This document shows positions 3,693 through 28,120 of a stretch of DNA of 64,000 nucleotides, piece after piece. Where the stretch lies: assembly GCA_018667355.1 (NCBI GenBank), contig JABIVC010000016.1, positions 175,762 through 239,761 of the forward strand, read 5' to 3'. The position numbers and the translations under genes were made by a program. Below the pieces are notes generated by a model. The model had not been told where the DNA came from, did no database searches, and saw only the letters and a program-made list of their open reading frames with translations. The number at the start of each line of letters is the position of its first letter. Positions within the stretch are counted from its first letter, which is position 1. Origin of the DNA: Gammaproteobacteria bacterium (GTDB lineage Bacteria > Pseudomonadota > Gammaproteobacteria > GCA-002705445 > GCA-002716945).

Positions 3693-5378
3693 ATGAATAA
3701 TTTTGAAAGCTTTAATCTTTCCGAAAATCTAAATTTAGCATTAGCTAAAATGGAATTTTCAAAACCAACACCAATTCAAGCTCAAACTATACCTCTAGCT
3801 TTGCAAGGCAAAGATATTCTCGGTTCAGCACAAACTGGCACTGGTAAAACAGCTGCATTTTGTATACCAATGATTGAAATGTTACTGAGAAATGAAAATA
3901 TGACAGCTTTAATAATGACGCCTACAAGAGAACTTGCAAGGCAGGTTCTAGAGGTTGTTAATCAACTTATGGGTAATAAAACCTCATTGAGAGCAGCATG
4001 TTTGATAGGTGGAGAGGCAATGGGAAAACAGTTAAATCAACTCAGAAAGGCGCCTAGAATTATAGTTGGAACACCTGGAAGAATTAATGATCACCTTGAG
4101 AGTGAAACTTTAGATTTAATGGATTGTGGTTACTTAGTTTTGGATGAAACAGATAGAATGTTGGATATGGGTTTTGGCATACAAATAGATCAAACATTAC
4201 AGTATTTGCCTTCTGAAAAACAAACTTTACTTTTTTCAGCAACACTACCATCTAAGATTATGCAATTGTCTAAAAAATATCTTTATAACCCAGAAAGAAT
4301 TGCTATACAGTCTGATCAAGTTTTGCTAAGTAATATTGATCATGAAATATTGAATATTGATCATAATAAAAAATATGTTGAACTTTTAAGTCAATTGGAG
4401 CAAAGAGAAGGCTCAGTATTAATATTTGCAAAAACAAAACATGGCACACAAAGAATGGCTAAAAATCTAACAAATGATGGATTTAAAGCCGATGCATTAA
4501 ATGGAAACCTAAACCAGAATAAACGCGATAAAGTTATGAATAATTTTAGACTCAAAAAATTTAAAGTTTTAGTTGCAACTGATATTGCATCAAGGGGTTT
4601 AGATGTTGAGCATATCGAACATGTGGTAAATTATGATTTACCTCAAGTAGCTGAAGATTATGTTCATAGAATTGGGAGAACGGGTCGAGCTGGGTTAAAA
4701 GGCTCAACAATCTGTTTCATTTCTCCTGAAGAACAACCATTATGGGAGCAAATTAATTATTTATTAAATCCTAAAACAGCAAAAAAACCTTCAAGTGCAA
4801 GTAAAAATAGTAGATCTTCAAGAAAAAGAAGCAATAGTCAAAATCAATCTACGAAGACTAGAAGAAGCTTTTCTTCAAGCAATGGACCTAGAAGAAGAGG
4901 TAATGAAGGTAATACTGATTCAAGATTACATAGAAATACAAGCACAAGAAGAAGTGCCAATGGAAATACAGTTTCAAGGTCAGCCAGAGACAATAATCAG
5001 CGTAGAGATGCCGAGGGCAACAATATAGCTAAACCATTAAGAGGCAACAGTTCGAGAAGAGCTAATAATGGGTCAAAATCATTTAGAGGGCATAGCAAGA
5101 GAAGAGGAAATGAAGGAAACATGGATTCAAGGCCAACTAGAAGTAGTGCCCCAAGAAGAAGTGCCAATGGAAATACAATTTCAAGGCCAACTAGAAGTAG
5201 TGCCCCAAGAAGAAGTGCCAATGGAAATACAATTTCAAGGCCAACTAGAAGTAGTGCCCCAAGAAGAAGTGCTAATGGAAATACATTCTCTAAGCATACA
5301 AAAGGGTCTGGTCAAAGACGAAATACACCCGGATCAAGAAATAAAACATTAGGTTTGAGACAAGGGAGCAGAAGATAA
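3693..5378 (+). CDS. DEAD-box ATP-dependent RNA helicase (RhlE/DeaD-like) with a ~200 aa Arg/Ser/Asn/Gly-rich repetitive C-terminal tail
   Basis: Q-motif region TPIQAQTIP, motif I AQTGTGKTAAF, Ia PTRELA, TPGR, motif II as DETD (not DEAD), SAT, HRIGRTGRAG. The tail carries 18-aa tandem repeats SRPTRSSAPRRSANGNTI. Confidence 0.9.
   Translation: MNNFESFNLSENLNLALAKMEFSKPTPIQAQTIPLALQGKDILGSAQTGTGKTAAFCIPMIEMLLRNENMTALIMTPTRELARQVLEVVNQLMGNKTSLRAACLIGGEAMGKQLNQLRKAPRIIVGTPGRINDHLESETLDLMDCGYLVLDETDRMLDMGFGIQIDQTLQYLPSEKQTLLFSATLPSKIMQLSKKYLYNPERIAIQSDQVLLSNIDHEILNIDHNKKYVELLSQLEQREGSVLIFAKTKHGTQRMAKNLTNDGFKADALNGNLNQNKRDKVMNNFRLKKFKVLVATDIASRGLDVEHIEHVVNYDLPQVAEDYVHRIGRTGRAGLKGSTICFISPEEQPLWEQINYLLNPKTAKKPSSASKNSRSSRKRSNSQNQSTKTRRSFSSSNGPRRRGNEGNTDSRLHRNTSTRRSANGNTVSRSARDNNQRRDAEGNNIAKPLRGNSSRRANNGSKSFRGHSKRRGNEGNMDSRPTRSSAPRRSANGNTISRPTRSSAPRRSANGNTISRPTRSSAPRRSANGNTFSKHTKGSGQRRNTPGSRNKTLGLRQGSRR
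5133..5294 (+). repeat. Coding 54-bp direct tandem repeat (3 copies, last one degenerate) inside the helicase C-terminal tail; a diverged copy lies near 4945-4985
   Basis: Unit ccaactagaagtagtgccccaagaagaagtgccaatggaaatacaatttcaagg is repeated head-to-tail at 5133, 5187 and 5241. The first two copies are identical and the third diverges near its end. Confidence 0.85.
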
Positions 5379-17408: not shown

Positions 17409-17431
17409 CTATGAATTCATAACCTCGTTGA

Positions 17432-17462
17432 AAGCCCATAAGATGTGTTTTATGGGCTTTCA
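17432..17462. other. Strong hairpin (AAAGCCCATAA...TTATGGGCTTT) without a U-tract
   Basis: 11-bp perfect inverted repeat. It lacks a T-run on either strand, so it is not a canonical intrinsic terminator. Confidence 0.5.
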
Positions 17463-17576: not shown

Positions 17577-18206
17577 ATGGAAGTTAATTCACTTTTAAAT
17601 CTTGGCGGCCCAATAGTATATATACTTCTTGTATTGTCTATTTATGCGACTGCTATTATTCTCTATAAGTTACACATTTTCTACAAAGTACAATTCTTTA
17701 AATCAGATATAACAGTTAAAAGCATTAATCTATGGCTTTCAGATAATCATAATGATGCATATGAATCGATTAACAATGTTAATGATCCACAAGCTGAAGT
17801 TGTATCTTTTGCAATGTATCAGCTACTTAAACATAAAAAACTCACTGTGAAAACTGAGAACGATATACGCGAAGAAATTACAAGGCTTTCAGATGAAAGA
17901 ATTAATAATTACAGTTCAAACCTTAATAGTTTGCAAGTAATCGCAACTATTGCTCCTTTATTAGGGTTATTAGGGACTGTTTTCGGTATGATCGAAGCCT
18001 TTCAGCAAATGGAAATGGCAGGTAAAAATGTTGACCCTTCTATTTTATCAGGTGGCATATGGGAAGCTTTATTAACAACCGCAGCAGGTTTATCAGTTGC
18101 GATACCAATAGTTGTTTTCGAATCTTACTTCAGAAATCTTATTGATACCTTTAAAAATAATATTGAAAATGCAGTGACAAAGGTACTAACATCACAAATT
18201 AATTAA
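17577..18206 (+). CDS. exbB: MotA/TolQ/ExbB proton-channel protein
   Basis: Three TM helices with the ExbB signature SGGIWEALLTTAAGLSVAIPIVVFESYFRN. Confidence 0.8.
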   Translation: MEVNSLLNLGGPIVYILLVLSIYATAIILYKLHIFYKVQFFKSDITVKSINLWLSDNHNDAYESINNVNDPQAEVVSFAMYQLLKHKKLTVKTENDIREEITRLSDERINNYSSNLNSLQVIATIAPLLGLLGTVFGMIEAFQQMEMAGKNVDPSILSGGIWEALLTTAAGLSVAIPIVVFESYFRNLIDTFKNNIENAVTKVLTSQIN

Positions 18207-18661
18207 CCACAGCAGCCCATACCAAACTTTTTTAATCTCCAGTAATTATATGGCCATGGAGTTAAAAAACCAGCAGTGAGCATGAATGGGATGACATAGA
18301 GATTTATTTTAGCTCCTCCAGTAATTAGAATATCTGTAATATTCATAGCCAATTCCATGCTGATCATAGAAATAAGACTCATACCAAATGCTGTTTTTAT
18401 TGCAGATTTCAGTTTCATTTGTTTTAACAATATTATTGTTTCAAGTATTATGCTTGAGACTATCCCATTAAACATTGCTAGTGCCATGATTGATAAGGTT
18501 GACCATGGAATTGCATTTACCTGGAAATAATATATTGTCATCATATCTCCGAAGCTACACCCTACCAAACACCAAAATGTATTGATAGCTGACTGACCCC
18601 ATGTATGTTTACATTTCCAGTTAAAGGCATTACTTTTCTTTATCATTATAAATCCAGCCAA
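18203..18661 (-). CDS. Membrane protein, DUF4396-like
   Basis: Hydrophobic 152 aa protein with CLVGCSFGDM, reminiscent of DUF4396. It is the last gene of a 5-gene minus-strand operon. Confidence 0.35.
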   Translation of the reverse strand: MAGFIMIKKSNAFNWKCKHTWGQSAINTFWCLVGCSFGDMMTIYYFQVNAIPWSTLSIMALAMFNGIVSSIILETIILLKQMKLKSAIKTAFGMSLISMISMELAMNITDILITGGAKINLYVIPFMLTAGFLTPWPYNYWRLKKFGMGCCG

Positions 18662-18978
18662 AGTTTTTTAGGTTGTCTCATACCAGCAATTTTACATGCT
18701 TGCTGACCATATCCATAAGGAAATAATTTATAAATATATTTTCTTGTTGATTTATCAGCACCATATTCATTTTTAAAATATTTTAGCAGATATCTTAGTT
18801 CTGGAACTTTTTGGTGTTCATCAAAATACTTTCGAATATACTTTATAACAATCCAATGATTTTTGCTTAACTCAGTCCTGAATTCTTTGGCAACTGTTTC
18901 TGCATGTTGAATATTCCAATCTGATGGATCTAGTAAGAAACCATCACTATCTTTTGCTGGAATGAATACATTATTCAT
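18646..18978 (-). CDS. DsrC/TusE-family protein retaining only the internal cysteine (CysB-like); C-terminal Cys absent
   Basis: MNNVFIPAKDSDGFLLDPSDWNIQHAETVAK...LFPYGYGQQACKIAGMRQPKKLWLDL aligns with bona fide DsrC (…LFPYGPGKQACKFAGLPKPTGCV), but the terminal GCV is replaced. Start taken at the second Met, since the 19002 start would overlap the Rieske gene by 32 nt. Confidence 0.7.
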   Translation of the reverse strand: MNNVFIPAKDSDGFLLDPSDWNIQHAETVAKEFRTELSKNHWIVIKYIRKYFDEHQKVPELRYLLKYFKNEYGADKSTRKYIYKLFPYGYGQQACKIAGMRQPKKLWLDL

Positions 18979-19276
18979 CAATAAAAATATGACCTTTTTC
19001 AATTAAAGTTTTATATGTTATGATTGGCTCGTCAGCTGGTTCATTTAATGCTTTGCCAGATTTTAAGTCAAAATAACTCCCATGCAATGGACATTTTACC
19101 TTAGTTCCATCAAGACATCCCATAGTCAGTTCTGCATCTTCATGAGTACACATATCAGATGTTACATAAATATTATTATCAATCTTTGCAATTAAATAAT
19201 TTTTAGAATTTATAGTTGCCTGAATCATTTCTCCATTCACTATATCATTTACATGTGCAACTTTAACTTTAGCCAT
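18971..19276 (-). CDS. Rieske [2Fe-2S] ferredoxin (small NirD-like protein)
   Basis: CTHEDAELTMGCLDG...CPLHGSYFD matches the CxH...CxxH Rieske motifs. Confidence 0.8.
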   Translation of the reverse strand: MAKVKVAHVNDIVNGEMIQATINSKNYLIAKIDNNIYVTSDMCTHEDAELTMGCLDGTKVKCPLHGSYFDLKSGKALNEPADEPIITYKTLIEKGHIFIDE

Positions 19277-19277
19277 C

Positions 19278-20393
19278 TTATTTTTTGAACCGTTTTAATG
19301 CGCTACCTGAACTCAGTACTTGGTTAACTTCTTTTGAACATGATTCGATACTATTATTAGTAACATGACTTAGAATTATGGTTGCACCATATAAAATACA
19401 GTCTCTCATAACACCATCAGATCCAGACAATGCATCCATTCCCATTTTTAGTGATTCTTTAGCTAAGTCTATTGGATTTACTTTTGTCTCAATTTTGTCA
19501 ATCGAAATATTTTTTTCAAACGAACTTGGTATTGTGACAGCTCGGACTTCTTGTTTAATATTTAAATCTATTTCTGGATTTATTTCTAATAATTCATTTT
19601 CATCTAGTATATTTTTATAATAATAAGCATTAGCCTTCTGTCTTAATGATGGTATTACGCCACCCTCTGTTCCACGAATAACAATTGAAGAATCAAAGTT
19701 TGCATTTCTAGCCAGCATTAAATAAATTGGAGGATATGGTTTATGCACATACCCTGTTACAAAATGATTTCTTTTTGAAATTAATGGGTTTGCTAAAACC
19801 TCTATAGTTGTAACAACAGGCCTTTTAATTATTTCTGTCCTCAGTTCCATTAGATTATTCAGTTGAGGAGAAAAAACTTTTTGGTCTATATAGCCCCAGC
19901 CTATATTTTTATCTTCTATCCTCTCTATAATTTGTTCATGAGTGGAGTACACATCTAATCCTAATAATTTAAAGATAGCATGATGTGTGCAGCCAAACTT
20001 TGGACCTACAGTCTTAACTCCTTGAGAAATAGATGGAATTCCGAGTTCTGCTAGAACGGGTAATATATATGCAGAAGATGGTATGTTTCTTGTAAAACCA
20101 TCATATGGATCAGCAATGTTCACAAGATTATCAACATTAACATCCATCTTTTTGACTGAATTTATCATAGCATCATGGACACCTAGATTTTCATCATGAG
20201 TCTCTCTTTTCATCCTAAGTGCGATTAAAAATATAGCTGAACGTACGTCGCTAATTTCTCCATTCAATATTGCAGACATGGATGCTTTGGCTTCCTCTCT
20301 GCTGATATTTTTACTAAGATCTGGACCAGTTGCTATTCTTTGAATAACTGATTTCATTAGTTCAGATGAAGTTATATTTTTTTTATCGGACAT
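19278..20393 (-). CDS. TrpD2/YbiB-like protein (glycosyltransferase family 3 fold with degenerate anthranilate-PRT active site)
   Basis: N-terminal helical domain ISREEAKASMSAILNGEISDVRSAIFLIALRMKRET matches the TrpD N-terminal domain. The GTGGD/KHGN catalytic motifs are replaced (ADPYDG...KTVGPKFG). Confidence 0.6.
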   Translation of the reverse strand: MSDKKNITSSELMKSVIQRIATGPDLSKNISREEAKASMSAILNGEISDVRSAIFLIALRMKRETHDENLGVHDAMINSVKKMDVNVDNLVNIADPYDGFTRNIPSSAYILPVLAELGIPSISQGVKTVGPKFGCTHHAIFKLLGLDVYSTHEQIIERIEDKNIGWGYIDQKVFSPQLNNLMELRTEIIKRPVVTTIEVLANPLISKRNHFVTGYVHKPYPPIYLMLARNANFDSSIVIRGTEGGVIPSLRQKANAYYYKNILDENELLEINPEIDLNIKQEVRAVTIPSSFEKNISIDKIETKVNPIDLAKESLKMGMDALSGSDGVMRDCILYGATIILSHVTNNSIESCSKEVNQVLSSGSALKRFKK

Positions 20394-20986
20394 TATTTAA
20401 AAACTATCCAAGTTGTTGCTATATATTTAATATCTTTTTTGAGTGTAACACCGCGATGTTCATGAGTCCAAAAAGGAGGAAACAGAATTAACTTTCCTGC
20501 TTCTGGTTTAATCTTTACATTTTGATGTAAAAATTCTGTTTCACCACCTGGGCCTATAACATCATTCAAGTACCAAATAGCAACCATTTGTCTATCACTA
20601 AATTGATGACTCCCGCTATCAATATGCCAGTGAAAAAATTCCCCTGGCTTTGTTCTCTGTACTGCATAACCAATATCTTTAAATGGTCCTGTAAAAAAAT
20701 CAAATTGCTTTTTTACTCCACTTAATGCCTTAGCTAAACTTGTGAAAAGTAAGTCATCAACATCTTTCCAGTTCTCTTTCCCGCTCACAACCATGTCAGT
20801 AGATTTTTTGATATCTAAATTCTCCTCAAATGTTTGTCCTACTCTTCCTTGATAATGATCTTCCTCAGAATCTTCAAATCTATTGATTATATCTAGACAG
20901 TCCTCACTAGAAATACTATTGGAAAATTCAAAAATAAAACTATTAGGTTTGACCTCTATTAATCTTTTGTCTAGCTGAATATCCAA
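20393..20986 (-). CDS. Fe(II)/2-oxoglutarate-dependent oxygenase (prolyl-4-hydroxylase-like superfamily)
   Basis: HWHIDSG (HxD) and distal FWTHEHRG His form a 2-His-1-carboxylate facial triad pattern. Translationally coupled (ATGA overlap) to the TrpD2-like gene. Confidence 0.6.
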   Translation of the reverse strand: MDIQLDKRLIEVKPNSFIFEFSNSISSEDCLDIINRFEDSEEDHYQGRVGQTFEENLDIKKSTDMVVSGKENWKDVDDLLFTSLAKALSGVKKQFDFFTGPFKDIGYAVQRTKPGEFFHWHIDSGSHQFSDRQMVAIWYLNDVIGPGGETEFLHQNVKIKPEAGKLILFPPFWTHEHRGVTLKKDIKYIATTWIVFK

Positions 20987-21068
20987 TTACTTATCCTGTT
21001 CATTTATATTCTTGGTTGTTGTGTGTATAGTATAAAATATTACTAATATATAATGAAGAAAATTAGTC

Positions 21069-21629
21069 ATGGTAATAAGAATTAAAAGCAATTGGTCCAA
21101 GACCGTTAAACGGGAAAAAACTAGCGAAGATATAGCTAGTGCCTTATCTTATATTGGATGGAAATTATCACTTGATAAAGCGCGTAACCTCCATGGGGAC
21201 GACTTTGATTATTCTTCTGATCATCAGCGCATTACTGTTATCGTAGAATTTATGTCATTTCAGGTACATCTAGCCGATAGACTCTTATATCAGAGTAAAA
21301 AGACAGATGACTATAGAATATCAGTCATGAATAATCTAGGACAACAGTCTGCCAGGATAATGCAAGAAAATTGCGAGGATCTATTTGGCGATGGAAATTA
21401 TAGAGAGGGCTATATCAATACTCTTAATATAAGATCCGGGGAATATTCTCATTATGAATTTACAAAATCATCTGGAAATTATTCTCTTTATCGACATCTA
21501 GCTAAAAAAATACAAGATGCGATGGGATCTAGCCAGACTAATAAATGGGTTATGGACCAGATAGTCGATATAGATGCCGTAGAGATTTGTAAGAAGTTTA
21601 TAGAAGTTTACGAATCTTTAACCAAGTAA
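21069..21629 (+). CDS. Hypothetical protein
   Basis: 186 aa ORF with no motif I recognise. Divergent from the 2OG-oxygenase operon. Confidence 0.4.
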   Translation: MVIRIKSNWSKTVKREKTSEDIASALSYIGWKLSLDKARNLHGDDFDYSSDHQRITVIVEFMSFQVHLADRLLYQSKKTDDYRISVMNNLGQQSARIMQENCEDLFGDGNYREGYINTLNIRSGEYSHYEFTKSSGNYSLYRHLAKKIQDAMGSSQTNKWVMDQIVDIDAVEICKKFIEVYESLTK

Positions 21630-21638
21630 GTTAAACAC

Positions 21639-21833
21639 TTATTTTTTAAAATTTTTTGCGTTATTAATGGTCTTATTCTCGCCATCTTCATAGCCAGCTT
21701 CATAAGCATCACTGAGCCTTTGTTCTTCTATTTTAGGACTATTTTGATAACCTTCTTGCCAGCCTATAATATAATCATCAGACGCATTCATGTCTTCAAG
21801 TTCTGTTACTTTTTTAAAATAATCATTATTCAT
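21639..21833 (-). CDS. Small acidic hypothetical protein (64 aa)
   Basis: Last ORF of a tightly coupled minus-strand operon (ATGA overlap with the upstream 74 aa ORF). Confidence 0.35.
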   Translation of the reverse strand: MNNDYFKKVTELEDMNASDDYIIGWQEGYQNSPKIEEQRLSDAYEAGYEDGENKTINNAKNFKK

Positions 21834-22057
21834 TATGTTCTTATAGACCCCTTTAGTTCATGTGCAATGTCTACCAGACGGTTGGCTAACTTCTCATGCG
21901 TTTCTTTATATTCTTTTACAATGCCCACTGGATTTAAATGGATGTCTTTCTCGGTAACGCCAGTACTTCTCTCAAGCTCCATAAACTCTTTTTGAATTCT
22001 TAATAATGTCGCAATTATAGTTTTTCTTTCTTCTTCTAGTTTTTTAATATCACTCAT
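21833..22057 (-). CDS. Small coiled-coil hypothetical protein (74 aa)
   Basis: Predicted helical/coiled-coil protein (KLEEERKTIIATLLRIQKEFMELER). Its start overlaps the stop of the RspA-like gene. Confidence 0.4.
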   Translation of the reverse strand: MSDIKKLEEERKTIIATLLRIQKEFMELERSTGVTEKDIHLNPVGIVKEYKETHEKLANRLVDIAHELKGSIRT

Positions 22058-22407
22058 TAGTATCCACCTTTTCTCCTACTTTCTGGCAAGCCACCTATTC
22101 TACCAGCTTGTTTACTAGGATTACCAGGAAATAAGTCGAATAATGTTTTAGTATCAATTTTTTCACCCCACAACTTTCCTAAATCTTTGACCATGTTTCT
22201 AGTATTAGGCTGATTTTCTTTGTTATTGATGAACTCGTCTCTTAGGTAGTTAATTACGTCCCAGTGCCTTTCTGTTAGTTCTATTTCCTCTTGTATCGCA
22301 ATAACTTTGGCTATATCTTCATTCCAGTCTTCGAGCTTAACTAGAAAGCCTGTTTCAGATGTTTCGATTAATTGACCATTTACCTCTACTTTCATTGGAA
22401 GCTCCAT
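22057..22407 (-). CDS. DsrC/TusE-family protein lacking both conserved cysteines (RspA-like)
   Basis: MELPMKVEVNGQLIETSETGFLVKLEDWNEDIAK...DLFPGNPSKQAGRIGGLPESRRKGGY is collinear with DsrC, but CysB is Gly and the C-terminal GCV is GGY. Confidence 0.75.
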   Translation of the reverse strand: MELPMKVEVNGQLIETSETGFLVKLEDWNEDIAKVIAIQEEIELTERHWDVINYLRDEFINNKENQPNTRNMVKDLGKLWGEKIDTKTLFDLFPGNPSKQAGRIGGLPESRRKGGY

Positions 22408-22480
22408 CTAATCCTGATTTTTATATATGAAAATTCTAATATACTAGGAGAAATATGTCCATATTGATTTTGACTAATAG

Positions 22481-23149
22481 TTAGTCTTCTTTGAAGTTTG
22501 GGACCGCATCTATTGACTTATGAGGTAACAATATTCCACATCCGTAAATTCTGCCACCTCCAATGCCTAAATCTTGAAGAAGTATAGAGTGTTCTTTAGA
22601 TAAATCAGCAATCATGAGGCTTCTTGTAAATTTATGTTTTCCCATTAAAATTATACTTTTTGTTTTGCCACATATAGCTTTTTTTATATGTATTCCATGC
22701 ACACTCAACTGATTTTTAATTTCTAATAGAAAATTTTCTTCTGTTTGATCAGGATCACAGAGAACAGATCTACAAATCAAATCTTTGACAACAAGGAATG
22801 GTTTCACAATAGATATGCCAATTTTTATATCATTTTTTAAAACATTTAGAGTAGAGCCTTCTATTAGCCGCACCTTATCAATATCAGTTTTAGGAATTCT
22901 TAATATAAGTCTAGTTCTTTTGGATAAAAATATTTGATCTTTTTCAGAGCGAACCCAACCATTCCCAAAATCAGGCCCATGAAGAGTATGAACACCGATA
23001 GATTTGTTTTCTAGCATCCAAGGAGCTAGATTAGTTATAGCATTTGATAATTCTGAAACATGGTCATATGGTAATATCTTACATTCAATTTTAAATGCAA
23101 CATCTGCCATCATAGATTTTTCTTCTACCTTTTCTTCTTCTTCCCACAT
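22481..23149 (-). CDS. Protein with Cas6e(CasE)-like C-terminal glycine-rich loop; putative RAMP/RRM-fold RNA-binding protein, no CRISPR context
   Basis: C-terminus SILLQDLGIGGGRIYGCGILLPHKS closely parallels the E. coli CasE C-terminus ALIDLVQQGIGPAKSMGCGLLSLAPL (G-rich loop GhG-x5-GCG-hL). An N-terminal PYDH motif is a possible catalytic-His region. Acidic N-terminal extension; the true start may be the MMADV Met. Confidence 0.45.
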   Translation of the reverse strand: MWEEEEKVEEKSMMADVAFKIECKILPYDHVSELSNAITNLAPWMLENKSIGVHTLHGPDFGNGWVRSEKDQIFLSKRTRLILRIPKTDIDKVRLIEGSTLNVLKNDIKIGISIVKPFLVVKDLICRSVLCDPDQTEENFLLEIKNQLSVHGIHIKKAICGKTKSIILMGKHKFTRSLMIADLSKEHSILLQDLGIGGGRIYGCGILLPHKSIDAVPNFKED

Positions 23150-23151
23150 AA

Positions 23152-23343
23152 TTATTTAATATAACTACTAAAAGCTGACTCTATTTTATCTTCCCAGTTT
23201 TCTGGTGTATCTGGGAATGGGGGTTTTAAATCAATCCTTATGAAAATTTCACCGTCTTTAGCTCTAATTTTAACTACTTCTAATAGCTCCTTAAAAGTTT
23301 CAATATCTTTTTCGTCTATAAGTAAACTGCTTAAATATAACAT
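23152..23343 (-). CDS. Small hypothetical protein (63 aa)
   Basis: Coupled on both sides, between the TauD-like and Cas6e-like genes. Confidence 0.35.
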   Translation of the reverse strand: MLYLSSLLIDEKDIETFKELLEVVKIRAKDGEIFIRIDLKPPFPDTPENWEDKIESAFSSYIK

Positions 23344-24191
23344 TACACTTCCATTCTCTTTTTAGATCTTAATCTATATAGGAGCCTATTCTTTTTTTCC
23401 AAATTTGTAAACGGTGTACGCATATGGATAACATTATTTGTTATAACGCCCTGCCCCTCTGTGAATTTATGTGTAATGTGGTATTCATCAGAATTATTAA
23501 CAATATTTTTTAGATTACTTGCAGCTTTTTGGGATTTATCATTCCACAATATATTTTTCTCTCTCATAGTGAATTTCATATGTAATTTGCCATTAATGAA
23601 TGAGAATATAGGACTGTCAACAGCCTTTCTCTGAGTGTGTGTATTTTCAGGGATTGTATATGTGTTATGTAACATTAAATCACTAATATTATTATAAGCT
23701 TCATTAAATAATATATATGCTATTTCATGATCCATATATTTATTCATACCACCACTTTCAGATTGTGTTCTACAGAATAAAATCCATGAGAGTATAAGGT
23801 TTTCATTATTATTATAATATCCATCCGTATGCCAATTCAGTTTTTTATTTGTATATGGAATATATTCAGCGTTTGATTGATGTTTACTGTGAATTTTGAT
23901 CTCTGTTAGGCCATCATCATCTGATTTTGAGTCTATCTCATAATTACCAAGTCCAATTTGGGACCCCATGATTTTTATGGCTGCTTTTAAATCCGTGGCT
24001 TCTTTATCTATCTGAAAAAAGACAATATTATGCTGATTTATTATGTTAGACATATATGTTTTTTCAGGTTTGGTAAGGGAGCTGGGATTGTTAATTTCCA
24101 CAATTAAATCATCGATTTTATTGGAAAATCTCTCTAGTTTTTTATCAGCCCAGAGTTTATAATCATTTCTAGGAATCTCAAGTATGTTCAT
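23343..24191 (-). CDS. TauD/TfdA-family Fe(II)/2-oxoglutarate dioxygenase
   Basis: WHTDGYY (HxD of the facial triad, as in TauD WHTD) and C-terminal ...NNVIHMRTPF (distal His and Arg that binds 2OG). First gene of the operon, divergent from dsrA. Confidence 0.6.
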   Translation of the reverse strand: MNILEIPRNDYKLWADKKLERFSNKIDDLIVEINNPSSLTKPEKTYMSNIINQHNIVFFQIDKEATDLKAAIKIMGSQIGLGNYEIDSKSDDDGLTEIKIHSKHQSNAEYIPYTNKKLNWHTDGYYNNNENLILSWILFCRTQSESGGMNKYMDHEIAYILFNEAYNNISDLMLHNTYTIPENTHTQRKAVDSPIFSFINGKLHMKFTMREKNILWNDKSQKAASNLKNIVNNSDEYHITHKFTEGQGVITNNVIHMRTPFTNLEKKNRLLYRLRSKKRMEV

Positions 24192-24322
24192 TGGATTTAA
24201 TGCCTATTTAGTACTTGTAAGTTATTTTAAATAAATGCTATATTGTTTATCCATAGACATATATTAGTAAATAATGATAATATAATAAACATTATATATC
24301 ATAAATAGCGGGGAGCTATACA

Positions 24323-25576
24323 TTGAAAAAGCACGATACACCAATGTTAGATGAACTAGAAAACGGGCCATGGCCTAGTTTTATTAGTGGGATTAAGAGA
24401 CTAAGAGACTCTCATCCTGAAGAAAGAATTAATGAAATGACAAATGACTTATTGGGTCAATTAGAACATTCATATGAGACAAGAAAAGGTTATTGGAAAG
24501 GCGGTACTGTAAGTGTTTATGGTTATGGCGGCGGAATAATACCTCGTTTCTCAGAGGTAGGTGATGCGTTTCCTAAATCTAAAGAATTTCATACACTACG
24601 CGTACAACCTCCTGCTGGGAATTTCTATACAACGGACATACTTAGAAAAATGGCTGATAGCTGGGAAAAATATGGCTCAGGGTTAGTTACTTTTCATGGC
24701 CAAACTGGAAATATTATGTTTATAGGGTCAACTTCTGATGCTACCCAACATTTTTTTGACGAAATCAATGAATATGGTTTTGATTTAGGTGGAGCTGGAC
24801 CATGCGTTAGAACAGCAATGTCATGTGTTGGTGCTGGAAGATGTGAAATGTCCAACATCAATGAACATAAAGCTCATAGGTTGCTAGTAAATAATTTTAT
24901 AGATGATATGCATAGACCTGCATTACCATATAAATTTAAATTCAAGGTTTCTGGATGTGCAAATGATTGTATGAATTCTATTGAAAGAGCAGACATGTCA
25001 ATTATTGGGACATGGAGAGATGACATTAAAATTGACCAAAAAGAATTTAAAGAATATGTTGAATTAAAAGGAAGAAAGCATGTAATAGATAATATTATTA
25101 CAAGGTGCCCAACAAATGCTATTTCTCTAAACGATGATGATACAGTGTCTATAGATAATCAAAATTGCGTAAAATGTATGCATTGCTTAAATGTAGTTCC
25201 AAAAGCTCTTCATCCTGGTGATGATAAGGGAGCTACTGTATTAATGGGTGGTAAAAGAACTCTTAAAATTGGTGACTTAATGGGAACTGTGATTGTCCCA
25301 TTTATGAAACTAGAATCACAAGAAGACTGGGATAGGCTAGTTGAAATTGCTGAGGAATCAATAGATTTCTGGGCAGATAATGCTCTTGAGCATGAAAGAT
25401 GTGGTGAGATGATTGAAAGAATCGGCCTTGTAAACTTTTTAGAAGGCATAGGAATTGATGTAGATCCAAATATGGTTGGAAATCCAAGGGAATCTAGTTA
25501 TTTTAGAGGTGATGGATGGGACGGCGAAGCAGTCAAGTGGTATGAACGCGCAGATGCGGATAAGGATTCTGCTTAA
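24323..25576 (+). CDS. dsrA: Dissimilatory sulfite reductase alpha subunit (reverse/oxidative type)
   Basis: TTG start at 24323 (RBS GGGAG 7 nt upstream) gives MKKHDTPMLDELENGPWPSFISG, collinear with DsrA N-termini. Sirohaem and [4Fe-4S] Cys clusters (CVGAGRC...C) and ferredoxin-like CPTNA...C. Confidence 0.9.
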   Translation: MKKHDTPMLDELENGPWPSFISGIKRLRDSHPEERINEMTNDLLGQLEHSYETRKGYWKGGTVSVYGYGGGIIPRFSEVGDAFPKSKEFHTLRVQPPAGNFYTTDILRKMADSWEKYGSGLVTFHGQTGNIMFIGSTSDATQHFFDEINEYGFDLGGAGPCVRTAMSCVGAGRCEMSNINEHKAHRLLVNNFIDDMHRPALPYKFKFKVSGCANDCMNSIERADMSIIGTWRDDIKIDQKEFKEYVELKGRKHVIDNIITRCPTNAISLNDDDTVSIDNQNCVKCMHCLNVVPKALHPGDDKGATVLMGGKRTLKIGDLMGTVIVPFMKLESQEDWDRLVEIAEESIDFWADNALEHERCGEMIERIGLVNFLEGIGIDVDPNMVGNPRESSYFRGDGWDGEAVKWYERADADKDSA

Positions 25577-25590
25577 AGAGAAATAAAATT

Positions 25591-26679
25591 ATGACAGAAG
25601 TTAAAGAAAAAAAACAACAAAGATCACCAATAGAAACTGGTGCACCAGATGGTTTCCAATATATGCATCCAACAATGCGTAAAAATTTTGGTCAATGGAA
25701 ATGGCATGATCATCCAAGACCGGGAGTCTTGAGGCATGCGGCAAACAGCGGCGACGAGATATGGACAGTTAGAGCTGGAACTCAAAGAATTTTGGATGTA
25801 TTCACTTTACGTACATTATGTGACATTGGTGACAAGTATGCAGATGGTTTTGTGAGATTTACAATAAGAAGTAACATTGAGTATATGGTCAAAGATGCAT
25901 CTAAAGTTGACCCATTGATTGAAGCACTTGAAAAAGAAGGTTTTATTGTAGGTGGTACTAAAAATAGTGTTGCTATGATATCTCATACACAAGGATGGTT
26001 GCATTGTGATATTCCAGGAACAGATGCCTCCGGTGTTGTTAAAGCAATGATGGATGAATTAATAAATGAATTTAAGAACAATGATATGCCTAATAGAGTG
26101 CATATGACTACATCATGTTGCCAAATTAATTGTGGAGGTCAGGGAGACATAGCAATTAACATACAGCATACTAAGCCACCTAAAATAAACCATGATTTAG
26201 TATCAAATGTGTGTGAAAGACCTAGTGTTGTTGCTAGATGTCCTGTAGCAGCAATCAGACCAGCAATGGTAAATGGTAAAGCTTCATTAGAGGTTGATGA
26301 AAAGAAATGTATATGTTGCGGAGCTTGTTTCCCACCATGTCCACCAATGCAAATAAATGATCCAGAGCATAGTAAATTAGCTATATGGGTTGGTGGTAAT
26401 CACTCAAATGCACGTAGTAAGCCAACATTCCAAAAACTAGTGGCAGCTGGAATACCAAATAATCCCCCAAGATGGCCAGAGGCTACTGCAATTGTTAAGA
26501 AAATTCTTAAAAAGTATAAAGAAGATGCTAAAGATTGGGAACGCATCAATGATTGGATTGAGAGAATTGGCTGGCCAAGATTCTTTGAGCTCACTGAATT
26601 ACCATTTACTAAATATCACATTGATAATTGGCGTGGTGGTAGAAAGACCCTAAACTCATCTACCTACATTAGATTTTAA
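25591..26679 (+). CDS. dsrB: Dissimilatory sulfite reductase beta subunit
   Basis: Sulfite reductase beta Cys motifs (TSCCQINCGG, CPVAAIRP, CICCGACFPPCPP). Directly downstream of dsrA. Confidence 0.9.
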   Translation: MTEVKEKKQQRSPIETGAPDGFQYMHPTMRKNFGQWKWHDHPRPGVLRHAANSGDEIWTVRAGTQRILDVFTLRTLCDIGDKYADGFVRFTIRSNIEYMVKDASKVDPLIEALEKEGFIVGGTKNSVAMISHTQGWLHCDIPGTDASGVVKAMMDELINEFKNNDMPNRVHMTTSCCQINCGGQGDIAINIQHTKPPKINHDLVSNVCERPSVVARCPVAAIRPAMVNGKASLEVDEKKCICCGACFPPCPPMQINDPEHSKLAIWVGGNHSNARSKPTFQKLVAAGIPNNPPRWPEATAIVKKILKKYKEDAKDWERINDWIERIGWPRFFELTELPFTKYHIDNWRGGRKTLNSSTYIRF

Positions 26680-26692
26680 ACAAGGACTGTTT

Positions 26693-27085
26693 ATGTTATT
26701 CGGTATACTAGTTAACGAAGGACCTTATCAGCATCAAGCTTCAGATAGCGCATACTTATTTGCAAAAGCAGCCATAGAAGAAGGCCATACTATTTTTCGA
26801 GTTTTTTTTTATCATGATGGAGTCAATAATGGTACTAGACTAGCAACTCCTCCTCAAGATGATAGACACATTCCTAATAGATGGTCAGAGTTAGCTCAAG
26901 AACATGAAATTGATTTAGTTCTATGTGTTGCAGCTGCCCAAAGAAGGGGTATGGTTGACCCAGATGAAATGAAGAGACATAAAAAAGACGCAGATAATAT
27001 TGCAGATAAATTTAGAATATCAGGTCTAGGACAGCTTATAGAAGCTGGCGTGCAAGCAGATCGGCTGATAACTTTTGGTGATTAA
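26693..27085 (+). CDS. dsrE: Sulfurtransferase DsrE
   Basis: 130 aa DsrE/DsrF-like fold, first of the dsrEFH triplet following dsrAB. Contains the conserved Cys in LCVAAAQ. Confidence 0.85.
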   Translation: MLFGILVNEGPYQHQASDSAYLFAKAAIEEGHTIFRVFFYHDGVNNGTRLATPPQDDRHIPNRWSELAQEHEIDLVLCVAAAQRRGMVDPDEMKRHKKDADNIADKFRISGLGQLIEAGVQADRLITFGD

Positions 27086-27469
27086 ATGGAAGATGAATTA
27101 GAAAGTGGTGTTGTAAAAAAATTTCTCTATGTCAATAGAAGAGCTCCACATGGAACAGTCTATGCACATGAAGCGCTTGAGGTTGTTCTAATTGGTGCTG
27201 CGTTTGAGCAAGATGTTAGCTTAGCCTTTATAGATGATGGTGTTTTCCAACTAAAAAAAGAACAAGATACATCTGAAATTTATACAAAAAACTTTTCTAA
27301 GATTTATGCCGCTCTTGAAATGTATGACGTTGAAAAGCTTTACGTAGACAAGGATTCATTAGAGTCTAGAGGTTTAACGGAGAATGATTTATCAGTAGAT
27401 GTTAAAGTTATCGATAGTAAAGAGATGACTAAACTTATAGTAGATAGCGAGGTTATATTTAATTTCTAA
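27086..27469 (+). CDS. dsrF: DsrF
   Basis: 127 aa DsrE/F family protein. Its start abuts the dsrE stop. Confidence 0.8.
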   Translation: MEDELESGVVKKFLYVNRRAPHGTVYAHEALEVVLIGAAFEQDVSLAFIDDGVFQLKKEQDTSEIYTKNFSKIYAALEMYDVEKLYVDKDSLESRGLTENDLSVDVKVIDSKEMTKLIVDSEVIFNF

Positions 27470-27771
27470 TGTTACATACAGTAAATAAATCACCATTTGA
27501 AAAAAATAGCCTAGATACTTGTTTAAGGTTAATAGATGATAGTTCGTCAGTACTTCTGATAGAAGATGCTGTATATGGCGCACTCGAGAATACAAGTATT
27601 TCTGATAAAATAAAAAAAGCGCAACAAGCAACTAAGTTTTATGTATTAGGCCCAGATTTAAAAGCTAGAGGGCTTGATAAAAGTTCTCTAATCTCTAATA
27701 TAGAGGTTATAGATTACAAGGGTTTTGTTACATTAACGGTAGAAAATGATAAAATTCAAAACTGGTTATAA
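27469..27771 (+). CDS. dsrH: DsrH
   Basis: 100 aa DsrH/TusB-like protein. ATG overlaps the dsrF stop (TAATG). Confidence 0.8.
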   Translation: MLHTVNKSPFEKNSLDTCLRLIDDSSSVLLIEDAVYGALENTSISDKIKKAQQATKFYVLGPDLKARGLDKSSLISNIEVIDYKGFVTLTVENDKIQNWL

Positions 27772-27787
27772 ATTAGAGGAGTAAATT

Positions 27788-28120
27788 ATGCCTATAGAAG
27801 TAAACGGAAAATCTTTTGAAACAGATGAAGAAGGGTATCTAGCCGATCTTAGCCTCTGGGAAAAAGACTTAGCTACAGCAATGGCTAAAGAAGATGATAT
27901 TGAACTTGGTGATGATCACTGGGAAATTATTAATTTTCTTCGTGAATACTATGAGGAGTATCAAATAGCCCCAGCTGTTAGGGTATTAACAAAGGCTGTT
28001 GGTAAAAAACTTGGCAAAGATAAAGGTAATAGTAAATACTTATATGAGCTATTCCCATATGGTCCAGGTAAACAAGCATGTAAATTTGCAGGGCTTCCAA
28101 AACCAACTGGTTGCGTATAA
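27788..28120 (+). CDS. dsrC: Sulfur carrier DsrC (both reactive cysteines present)
   Basis: C-terminus GKQACKFAGLPKPTGCV with CysB and penultimate CysA; 110 aa. Confidence 0.9.
   Translation: MPIEVNGKSFETDEEGYLADLSLWEKDLATAMAKEDDIELGDDHWEIINFLREYYEEYQIAPAVRVLTKAVGKKLGKDKGNSKYLYELFPYGPGKQACKFAGLPKPTGCV

Follow-up and report, generated by a model that had tools for sequence, protein, structure and literature searches.

The region between exbB and dsrA

We analyzed a 64,000-nt stretch of a gammaproteobacterial genome (hereafter, the window; positions 175,762 to 239,761 of contig JABIVC010000016.1 in GenBank assembly GCA_018667355.1), which has a low GC content of ~32% and, judging from its genes and relatives, probably derives from a SUP05-like marine sulfur-oxidizing gammaproteobacterium, and focused on about 6 kb of accessory genes that lie between exbB and dsrA, next to the dsr genes of the reverse-Dsr sulfur oxidation pathway. 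These genes are all encoded on the minus strand except p186, which is on the plus strand (Table 1). A preliminary description of the region had recognized two operons, each combining an Fe(II)/2-oxoglutarate (2OG) oxygenase, a DsrC/TusE-family protein without the full cysteine complement and a protein of a nucleic-acid-binding fold family, and had taken them as the same three-part logic repeated with non-homologous parts. Our analyses indicate that the 6 kb probably represents a conserved reverse-Dsr accessory gene set followed by an unrelated, clade-specific cluster, and not one design repeated.

The domains named previously were all recovered at family level by Pfam and NCBIfam, on the minus strand at the positions described. 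The gene order, in contrast, predicts at least four transcription units instead of two operons. The TauD-like, s63 and Cas6L genes overlap or abut one another (unit 1), as do, separately, the DsrC-like 1 (DsrCL1), s74 and Alvin_2107-family genes (unit 2). The p186 gene forms unit 3, and the prolyl 4-hydroxylase-like (P4H-like) oxygenase, TrpD-like, Rieske ferredoxin, DsrC-like 2 (DsrCL2) and DUF4396 genes form the predicted unit 4. Hereafter, units 1-3 are referred to as cluster 1 and unit 4 as cluster 2. The three-part scheme had left out s63, s74, the Alvin_2107-family gene, p186, the Rieske ferredoxin and the DUF4396 protein, and its parts are not all non-homologous, as the two DsrC-like proteins are homologs with 30% identity and both oxygenases have the 2OG-oxygenase fold. 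All genes were under purifying selection (dN/dS 0.006-0.14; the values are rough because synonymous sites are saturated).

Table 1 Predicted features between exbB and the dsr genes, with position in the window, strand and supporting evidence.
Feature	Position	Strand	Evidence
dsrABEFHC (context), followed by dsrMK onward; divergent from the TauD-like gene	24323..28120	+	Open reading frames (ORFs) with translations, synteny
TauD/TfdA-family Fe(II)/2OG oxygenase (TauD-like), 282 aa, first gene of unit 1	23343..24191	-	PF02668, E 6e-15
s63, small acidic protein, 63 aa, isoelectric point (pI) 4.6	23152..23343	-	Pairing with Cas6L; family profiles silent
Cas6L (solo Cas6 homolog), 222 aa, type I-B/Cmx6-like	22481..23149	-	PF09559, E 1.4e-48
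Promoter-like element in the Cas6L-DsrCL1 spacer	22423..22461	-	TGGACA-17-TAGAAT, invariant core AGTATATTAGAATTTTC
DsrCL1, 111 aa from the second ATG (22392)	22057..22392; ORF to 22407	-	PF04358, E 4.5e-32
s74, small conserved protein, 74 aa	21833..22057	-	Start overlaps the DsrCL1 stop
Alvin_2107-family small protein, 64 aa	21639..21833	-	NF049856, E 2e-23
p186, conserved protein, member of the Dsr-linked set	21069..21629	+	Retention across loci
P4H-like 2OG-Fe(II) oxygenase, 197 aa, first gene of unit 4	20393..20986	-	PF13640 (2OG-FeII_Oxy_3), E 1.2e-12
TrpD-like (TrpD-fold) protein, 371 aa	19278..20393	-	Glycos_trans_3N, E 2.9e-15
Rieske [2Fe-2S] ferredoxin, 101 aa	18971..19276	-	PF00355, E 2.6e-18
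DsrCL2, ~110 aa from an internal ATG (18978)	18646..18978; ORF to 19002	-	PF04358, E 1.3e-31
DUF4396 membrane protein, 152 aa, last gene of unit 4, convergent with exbB	18203..18661	-	PF14342, E 6.4e-32

Conservation of cluster 1 across lineages

A genome scan with the Cas6L alignment identified 37 species-level loci, and five more were added by contig look-up, giving 42 loci (numbered with an L prefix). They were retrieved through exact peptide patterns and mostly belong to a few related clades of metagenome-assembled genomes (MAGs). In the SUP05-like MAGs (L001-L029), the divergent arrangement of the window recurred, with dsrKMCHFEBA on one side and, on the other, the TauD-like, s63, Cas6L, DsrCL1, s74 and Alvin_2107-family genes, p186 on the opposite strand, and then the P4H-like and TrpD-like genes. 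The Acidiferrobacter-like loci also carried the TauD-like, s63, Cas6L, DsrCL1 and s74 genes divergent from dsrAB, with an extra 234-aa gene between s63 and Cas6L, and had p186 and the Alvin_2107-family gene close by in a rearranged order. A high-GC Chromatiales MAG (L037) showed TauD-like, s63, Cas6L and DsrCL1 adjoining dsrA.

Counted over the loci that could be assessed for each feature, the TauD-like gene accompanied Cas6L in 28 of 33, DsrCL1 was downstream of Cas6L in 35 of 40, and dsrA was within 6 kb in 25 of 30. The five loci without the TauD-like gene also had no DsrCL1, so the two were jointly present or absent. In these loci (L030-33 and L038), s63-Cas6L stood alone after aroK-aroB; they were labeled Oxydemutatoraceae or Porisulfidus, plus one unlabeled metagenome contig. 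Cluster 1 is therefore a genuine gene set linked to Dsr, conserved next to dsrAB in at least three lineages of gammaproteobacterial sulfur oxidizers. Neither a Cas6/TauD/DsrC-like cluster near dsr nor a solo Cas6 was described in the literature searched, which mostly excluded subscription papers.

Further conserved genes were seen in the Acidiferrobacter-like loci: besides the 234-aa protein, these were a DUF6866 protein and a ~375-aa protein (L034:2986-3690, L039:6843-7547, L041:11372-12418). The intergenic region between dsrA and the TauD-like gene (24192-24322), when compared with the homologous spacers of L001-L029, contained a block, TTATCATTNNTTTNCTAATAT, that is near-invariant across the SUP05-like clade and is probably a divergent promoter or operator region.

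Distribution of cluster 2

The genes of cluster 2 showed a different distribution. The P4H-like oxygenase was seen only in SUP05-like loci, and DUF4396 was found at the same position in those SUP05-like loci that extend that far. Between the TrpD-like and DUF4396 genes, the 26 loci retrieved with Cas6L that span this slot had both Rieske and DsrCL2 (3 loci), Rieske only (17), DsrCL2 only (3) or neither (3), i.e., DsrCL2 was present in 6/26 and a Rieske gene adjoined the TrpD-like gene in 20/26. In six more distant TrpD-like homologs (46-50% identity), a Rieske ferredoxin gene was adjacent in all six, and no oxygenase, DsrC-like or DUF4396 gene was found within 5-8 kb.

A metagenome scan with DsrCL2 yielded 80 loci, of which 26 had the SUP05-type operon. 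All 54 others encoded the C-terminus of the family, typically QQACKIAGMR(K/Q)PxKL(M/W)LD, and none had cluster 2 genes nearby, with the exception of one short contig bearing dsrEFH-like genes and DUF4396. The 149 nearest neighbors at 53 of these loci matched 114 Pfam families; no 2OG oxygenase family was among the 25 commonest, so that any such family had at most three members. Cluster 2 is thus specific to the SUP05-like clade and built around the TrpD-like/Rieske pair; DsrCL2, a member of a widespread stand-alone family, is an optional passenger in it.

A co-occurrence of degenerate DsrC proteins with 2OG oxygenases beyond the window was accordingly found for cluster 1 and not for cluster 2, where the three-part logic fails the refutation test proposed with it, the lack of statistical co-occurrence in other genomes. 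The parallel between the clusters exists in the window and is not conserved: the theme of one logic used twice is not supported, and the linkage of the TauD-like, Cas6L and cysteine-less DsrC genes beside dsrAB is.

Several observations were made at the additional DsrCL2-type loci. On the short metagenome contig (L077:3-1452), dsrEFH/tusDCB-like genes are directly followed by the DsrCL2-type gene and then DUF4396, which hints that in some relatives this DsrC family, with CysB only, may have another DsrEFH-like complex as its partner. At L094, L097 and L106, a distant sulfite/nitrite-reductase-like gene (26-28% identity to DsrA) and a small Rieske-type gene, a pair that is possibly nirBD-like, precede the DsrCL2-type gene, which gives another recurrent setting of the family. 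Molybdopterin oxidoreductase domains were among the commoner neighbors of DsrCL2 overall.

A solo Cas6 homolog and its small partner

Cas6L matched TIGR02807 with 101 bits (cut-off 98.85), PADLOC Cas6 profiles with E-values down to 1.8e-55, and, by sequence, the Cas6 of a type I-B CRISPR-associated transposon in the Protein Data Bank (PDB 8fcj_B, E 1.5e-15). Its AlphaFold2 model (mean predicted local distance difference test score, pLDDT, of 83.7) aligned to 8fcu_B/8fcj_B with template modeling (TM) scores of 0.76-0.79, and to Cas6e/Cse3 structures with only 0.36-0.48. Of the earlier label "Cas6e-like", the Cas6 family assignment therefore stands and the Cas6e type does not. The model and the alignment indicate two ferredoxin-like (RRM) domains and a conserved C-terminal G-rich loop (GIGGGRIYGCG). 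The family, the double ferredoxin-like fold and the G-rich loop pattern (GxGxxxxxGxG) are shared with the type I-B/"MYXAN" (Cmx6) Cas6 proteins, from which Cas6L differs in having neither an array nor other cas genes, in lying beside dsrAB and in always being preceded by the acidic 63-aa protein.

The 36 aligned Cas6L sequences had 32 invariant columns, with a dN/dS of ~0.09-0.16. Invariant residues include D29-H30 at the N-terminus of helix 1 and the PHK of the C-terminal tail PHKSIDAV; H57, within an HGxxxGNGW loop, is nearly invariant, and the GNGW motif was present in 52 of the best 150 Cas6L homologs in the profile search. The HGxxxGNGW loop, which the solved homolog (8fcj/8fcu) lacks, and the conserved tail further set Cas6L apart from the type I-B/Cmx6 proteins. 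The top-conserved motifs (loop 58-65 and the C-terminal tail) are low-confidence parts of the model, as would be expected of partner-binding segments. A catalytic His or Tyr occupies the helix-1 N-terminal position in several Cas6 enzymes. In the closest solved homolog, an Asn stands in place of H30, and Cas6L, with a pI of 7.7, is not basic. D29-H30 are only suggestive of catalytic residues for hairpin cleavage.

No CRISPR-like array was detected in the window or in 45 loci, PADLOC matched no cas gene besides Cas6 among the 10 cluster proteins, and the large ORFs of the window, like the annotated flanks, consisted of housekeeping, dsr or other genes and included no cas genes. The Cas6 of cluster 1 is thus without CRISPR context. 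Its public annotation reads "type I-MYXAN CRISPR-associated protein Cas6/Cmx6", a name that is probably misleading because the TIGR02807 cut-off is cleared by only 2 bits and because of this missing context. The five repeat copies at 4893-5315, mostly with 54-nt spacing, fall within an ORF for a DEAD-box helicase (3693-5378), in its C-terminal portion, and are coding DNA, not CRISPR. A defense-system reading was rejected, since, apart from a generic "2OG" profile of 81 positions that matched the P4H-like protein, PADLOC reported Cas6 profiles only. A viral origin was likewise rejected, as Cas6L, DsrCL1 and the optional DsrC-like gene were not found in viral contigs.

Searches for an RNA substrate were negative as well. 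Rfam had no matches in the window, and folding of the flanks of stand-alone s63-Cas6L loci gave no common hairpin, nor did any hairpin recur near Cas6L in any lineage. An inverted-repeat scan of 17-37 kb of the window returned nothing for Cas6L and only a terminator-like hairpin directly after a TonB-dependent receptor gene (17429-17462), in which the two arms of a perfect 13-bp inverted repeat enclose 8 nt.

The s63 gene was upstream of Cas6L in all 33 assessable loci, making this the tightest pair of cluster 1; s63 had no Pfam or NCBIfam matches.

The TauD-like oxygenase

The TauD-like protein matched PF02668 (TauD/TfdA) with 56 bits, above the cut-off of 27, and the residues expected for the Fe triad (H121-x-D123 and H256) and for 2OG binding (R269) were invariant in seven orthologs. 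These features are shared with the TauD/TfdA (clavaminate-synthase-like) dioxygenases. Unlike their characterized members, the protein had no match to a TauD equivalog in NCBIfam at E ≤ 0.1, the sole match there being gamma-butyrobetaine dioxygenase (21 bits), and a sequence search of the PDB, which includes TauD, AtsK and TfdA structures, returned nothing at E ≤ 1. By profile it is a highly divergent member of the TauD/TfdA family and, judging from the equivalog test, apparently not the taurine dioxygenase TauD proper. Its stop codon overlaps the start of s63 (TAATG), placing the gene in a join with s63 and then the Cas6 homolog, which also sets it apart from the known family. The dN/dS against L004 was 0.13, and neither a taurine transporter nor tauABC-like genes were present in the cluster.

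DsrC-like paralogs and the remaining genes of cluster 1

The true DsrC of the window (27788-28120, PF04358 E 1.3e-46) ends in KQACKFAGLPKPTGCV and has both cysteines. DsrCL1 and DsrCL2 span the full length of the DsrC fold and share 41-45% identity with it (PF04358 E ~1e-32). DsrCL1, which ends in KQAGRIGGLPESRRKGGY, has no cysteine in the entire protein, and DsrCL2, with the C-terminus QQACKIAGMRQPKKLWLDL, has CysB only; the earlier statement that both are short of the full cysteine complement was thus correct. Neither paralog has the penultimate cysteine. The family names DsrC, TusE and RspA appear in PMC8477390. The cysteine patterns of the two paralogs correspond neither to DsrC nor to TusE; they agree with those of the RspA-type, cysteine-deficient DsrC-like proteins, which have the fold without the redox cysteine pair. 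In the scheme that Venceslau et al. reportedly gave in 2014, DsrC has both cysteines, TusE the terminal one only, and the RspA-type proteins lack them. Because the penultimate cysteine of DsrC/TusE chemistry is absent, neither paralog can carry trisulfide or persulfide in the known way, and the TusE-like sulfur-relay role once suggested is impossible for DsrCL1, which has no cysteines. DsrCL1 scored 74 bits against the TusE model NF008562 (cut-off 191).

Both paralogs depart from the DsrC/TusE/RspA family in their C-termini, DsrCL2 ending in MRQPKKLWLDL and DsrCL1 having a longer arm. This arm is basic and conserved as GLPES(R/M)RKGGY; in the window it is GLPESRRKGGY, two residues longer, and it is identical in the high-GC Chromatiales locus. 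The dN/dS of DsrCL1 was 0.03. Translation of DsrCL1 probably begins at the second ATG (22392), 6 nt after a GGAG. For DsrCL2, the internal ATG at 18978 was taken as the start because the orthologs begin with MTN or MNN after an in-frame stop.

The spacer between Cas6L and DsrCL1 is 73 nt long and includes a promoter-like element (TGGACA-17-TAGAAT) that matched 10 of 12 positions in a consensus scan. Each of 30 SUP05-like loci had a single copy of its core AGTATATTAGAATTTTC, although protein identity among these loci is down to ~50%. The core is unique in the window, with 0 copies expected by chance. An imperfect palindrome within the core (ATATT-N10-AATAT) may be an operator. Given its own conserved promoter-like element, DsrCL1 appears to head its own unit and is probably not on the TauD-like/Cas6L transcript. 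An operator common to the dsrA and DsrCL1 promoters was rejected: ATATTAGAAW had 4 matches versus 2.1 expected, which is not significant, and the dsrA-side copy is imperfect in the window.

The s74 gene was retained in 33/40 loci, including the Acidiferrobacter-like loci, and had no Pfam or NCBIfam family matches. The following gene belongs to the Alvin_2107 family (NF049856, 82.5 bits versus a cut-off of 60), named "globule sulfur oxidation protein" in NCBIfam, and stays near the module even when inverted (L034-36). PMC8269255 depicts an Alvin_2107 homolog together with the other sulfur-oxidation genes of "Ca. Thiosymbion oneisti". The 64-aa gene of the window resembles this family in lying in a dsr neighborhood and differs in being the third gene of a unit led by a cysteine-less DsrC paralog, a linkage not found in the literature searched. 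The p186 gene was present in 29/35 loci and kept in the Acidiferrobacter-like loci, with a dN/dS of 0.006; it gave chance-level matches only in Pfam, NCBIfam and the PDB.

Proteins of cluster 2

The P4H-like oxygenase matched PF13640 with 49 bits (cut-off 27), had 72-81% identity across the clade and retained the ligands H121/D123/H175 or H177/K187 as invariant residues. The family match and the HxD...H...K pattern are shared with bacterial P4H-like oxygenases (PF13640; Bacillus anthracis P4H, 3itq/5hv0), from which it differs in its weak match to the bacterial prolyl 4-hydroxylases in the PDB (E 3e-4) and in the predicted co-transcription with a TrpD-fold protein, a Rieske ferredoxin and DUF4396.

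The identity of the TrpD-like protein is ambiguous. In NCBIfam it scored highest against the uncharacterized PRK07394 (137 bits), followed by YbiB (97 bits, cut-off 185) and TrpD (68 bits), all below threshold, and by phmmer against the PDB it was about equally close to YbiB (E 1e-10) and TrpD (E 2.7e-10). The phosphoribosyl pyrophosphate (PRPP) motifs GTGGD/KHGN/GSAD are replaced by DPYDGF/SQGV/FGCTHH. A TrpD fold without PRPP motifs and an NCBIfam score higher for YbiB than for TrpD bring it near YbiB/TrpD2. In contrast, the top 50 fold matches of its AlphaFold2 model (pLDDT 89; TM 0.72-0.78) were all TrpD and did not include YbiB, and, unlike YbiB and TrpD, its distant homologs invariably have a Rieske ferredoxin gene as neighbor. 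The protein is thus neither clearly TrpD nor clearly YbiB/TrpD2 and could be called PRK07394-like; of the earlier TrpD2-like label, the fold lacking PRPP motifs held up and a clear YbiB/TrpD2 identity did not. The near-neutral pI of 7.1 (K+R equal to D+E) and the many polar residues among the 68 columns invariant in 41 homologs fit a conserved pocket for a ligand better than non-specific binding of nucleic acids, which suggests, from sequence features, a protein with a specific pocket.

In two Acidiferrobacterales MAGs (L043:300-9122 and L126:259-6116), the Rieske/TrpD-like pair is located just past a lexA-sulA-imuB-dnaE2 SOS cassette, with one opposite-strand metallo-beta-lactamase gene in between; the cassette is partial in L126, and the two loci count as one observation because they are syntenic. 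In Escherichia coli, ybiB is LexA-controlled.

Possible functions and alternative explanations

SUP05-type and related gammaproteobacteria are major sulfur oxidizers of low-oxygen ocean water, and their cytoplasmic reverse-Dsr pathway retains unexplained accessory components. The gene set fixed with dsrAB (the TauD-like gene, Cas6L and its small partner, the cysteine-free DsrC, the Alvin_2107-family gene and p186) provides candidate Dsr regulators or helpers. DsrCL1 cannot carry sulfur because it has no cysteine, and the retained DsrC fold with its conserved basic arm would suit a decoy or adaptor role. We tentatively suggest that DsrCL1 is probably a DsrC mimic that docks via the arm GLPESRRKGGY onto a partner of DsrC, and DsrAB, DsrMK, DsrEFH or dsr promoter DNA could be its targets. 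The TauD-like oxygenase, with its ligands intact, might make this docking oxygen-dependent, e.g., by hydroxylating the arm or a small ligand, and s63-Cas6L might represent a former CRISPR Cas6 that now binds RNA or protein in the service of the Dsr system. The furthest form of this idea, an oxygen-sensing switch in which the ex-CRISPR Cas6, s63, the TauD-like oxygenase and the cysteine-free DsrC decoy tune reverse-Dsr sulfur oxidation, we regard as rather unlikely; that such a switch would target dsr transcripts or the DsrAB/DsrC interaction as cells cross oxic-anoxic boundaries is a similarly doubtful proposal. If Cas6L had a non-immune role, it would be a clear example of Cas protein reuse in core energy metabolism.

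Several points weigh against the reading of a Dsr accessory set beside an unrelated cluster, or against the mechanism proposed for it. With exact-pattern retrieval and few related clades, the counted loci are not independent of one another, and the distribution given here is a minimum. In the five loci with stand-alone s63-Cas6L, the TauD-like gene, DsrCL1 and nearby dsr genes are all missing, and the function of the pair need not depend on Dsr. The profile search returned 277 clusters of Cas6L homologs (50% identity) at E < 1e-30, which extend beyond the loci whose context was read. No RNA target for Cas6L was found by Rfam, the hairpin scan or flank folding, and TauD-family enzymes act mostly on small molecules, which disfavors hydroxylation of the arm. 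The mechanism is read from gene context, and our confidence in it is low. Within the clade, unit 4 shows very strong conservation and invariably adjoins units 1-3, and a functional link between them is conceivable.

The theme of the preliminary description, in which both clusters use a 2OG oxygenase, a degenerate DsrC/TusE and a nucleic-acid binder for the oxygen-dependent modification of a nucleic acid or cofactor, agrees with the six family-level domain assignments, with two oxygenases that appear catalytically intact, with the retention of the cluster 1 trio across lineages and with the YbiB-fashion loss of PRPP motifs in the TrpD-like protein. It is nevertheless very unlikely, given that the cluster 2 trio occurs in only 6/26 related loci, that the DsrCL2 family is widespread among unrelated neighbors with 2OG oxygenases outside the 25 commonest families, and that distant TrpD-like homologs have a Rieske gene beside them instead of an oxygenase or a DsrC-like gene. 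It is further weakened by a DsrCL1 that is cysteine-less and behind its own promoter-like element, by TrpD-like fold matches that are all enzymes with YbiB outside the top 50, and by the missing RNA element for Cas6L. The general idea of a functional pairing between 2OG oxygenases and degenerate DsrC proteins was unsupported and was removed. Alternatively, the TauD-like protein could be an organosulfonate (taurine-type) dioxygenase that releases sulfite and lies near dsr through a common sulfite-oxidation route, with the other genes unrelated. The Pfam match and the intact Fe/2OG site are compatible with this, and TauD/TfdA-family genes in marine rDsr-bearing bacteria have been interpreted as taurine degradation genes (preprint 10.64898/2026.04.01.715867, on UBA868), which may or may not be the same gene as that of the window. 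We find this improbable: the protein is recognized by Pfam with only 56 bits, scores just 21 bits to gamma-butyrobetaine dioxygenase in NCBIfam and draws a blank in the PDB, its stop codon overlaps the s63 start, the gene is co-retained with Cas6L and DsrCL1 across lineages, and the cluster has no taurine transporter or tauABC-like genes.

Two further explanations concern Cas6L. It could be active as an endoribonuclease and adjust the relative levels of dsr or module transcripts by processing them, with the TauD-like protein and DsrCL1 as separate Dsr accessories. The Cas6 fold with its G-rich loop and the invariant D29-H30 at the helix-1 N-terminus fit such an enzyme, which is highly doubtful in light of the absence of any conserved or recurring hairpin in the dsr region and around Cas6L in every lineage, the blank Rfam search, the non-basic pI and the Asn that replaces H30 in the closest solved homolog. 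The resemblance of the clusters and the linkage within cluster 1 could, on the other hand, reflect synteny by descent without functional coupling, with Cas6L as a decaying CRISPR-Cas remnant. Most loci are from related MAG clades, in which gene order could mirror ancestry, and s63-Cas6L also occurs away from dsr. This explanation seems the least probable of all, as the set is kept at ~30-66% protein identity to that of the window and across greatly different GC contents, survives the inversion of p186 and the Alvin_2107-family gene as well as inserted genes, includes a Cas6L with many invariant columns and a low dN/dS, and shows no trace of arrays or other cas genes. We therefore retain the reading of a conserved reverse-Dsr accessory set next to an unrelated clade-specific cluster, under which the database names "CRISPR-associated Cas6/Cmx6", "taurine dioxygenase" and "anthranilate phosphoribosyltransferase" are likely misleading.

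Other features of the window

Elsewhere in the window, a minus-strand gene (60447-63179) encodes a 910-aa LptD with an N-terminal BamE domain (PF04355, residues 62-129), apparently an uncommon fusion that joins two components of outer-membrane assembly.

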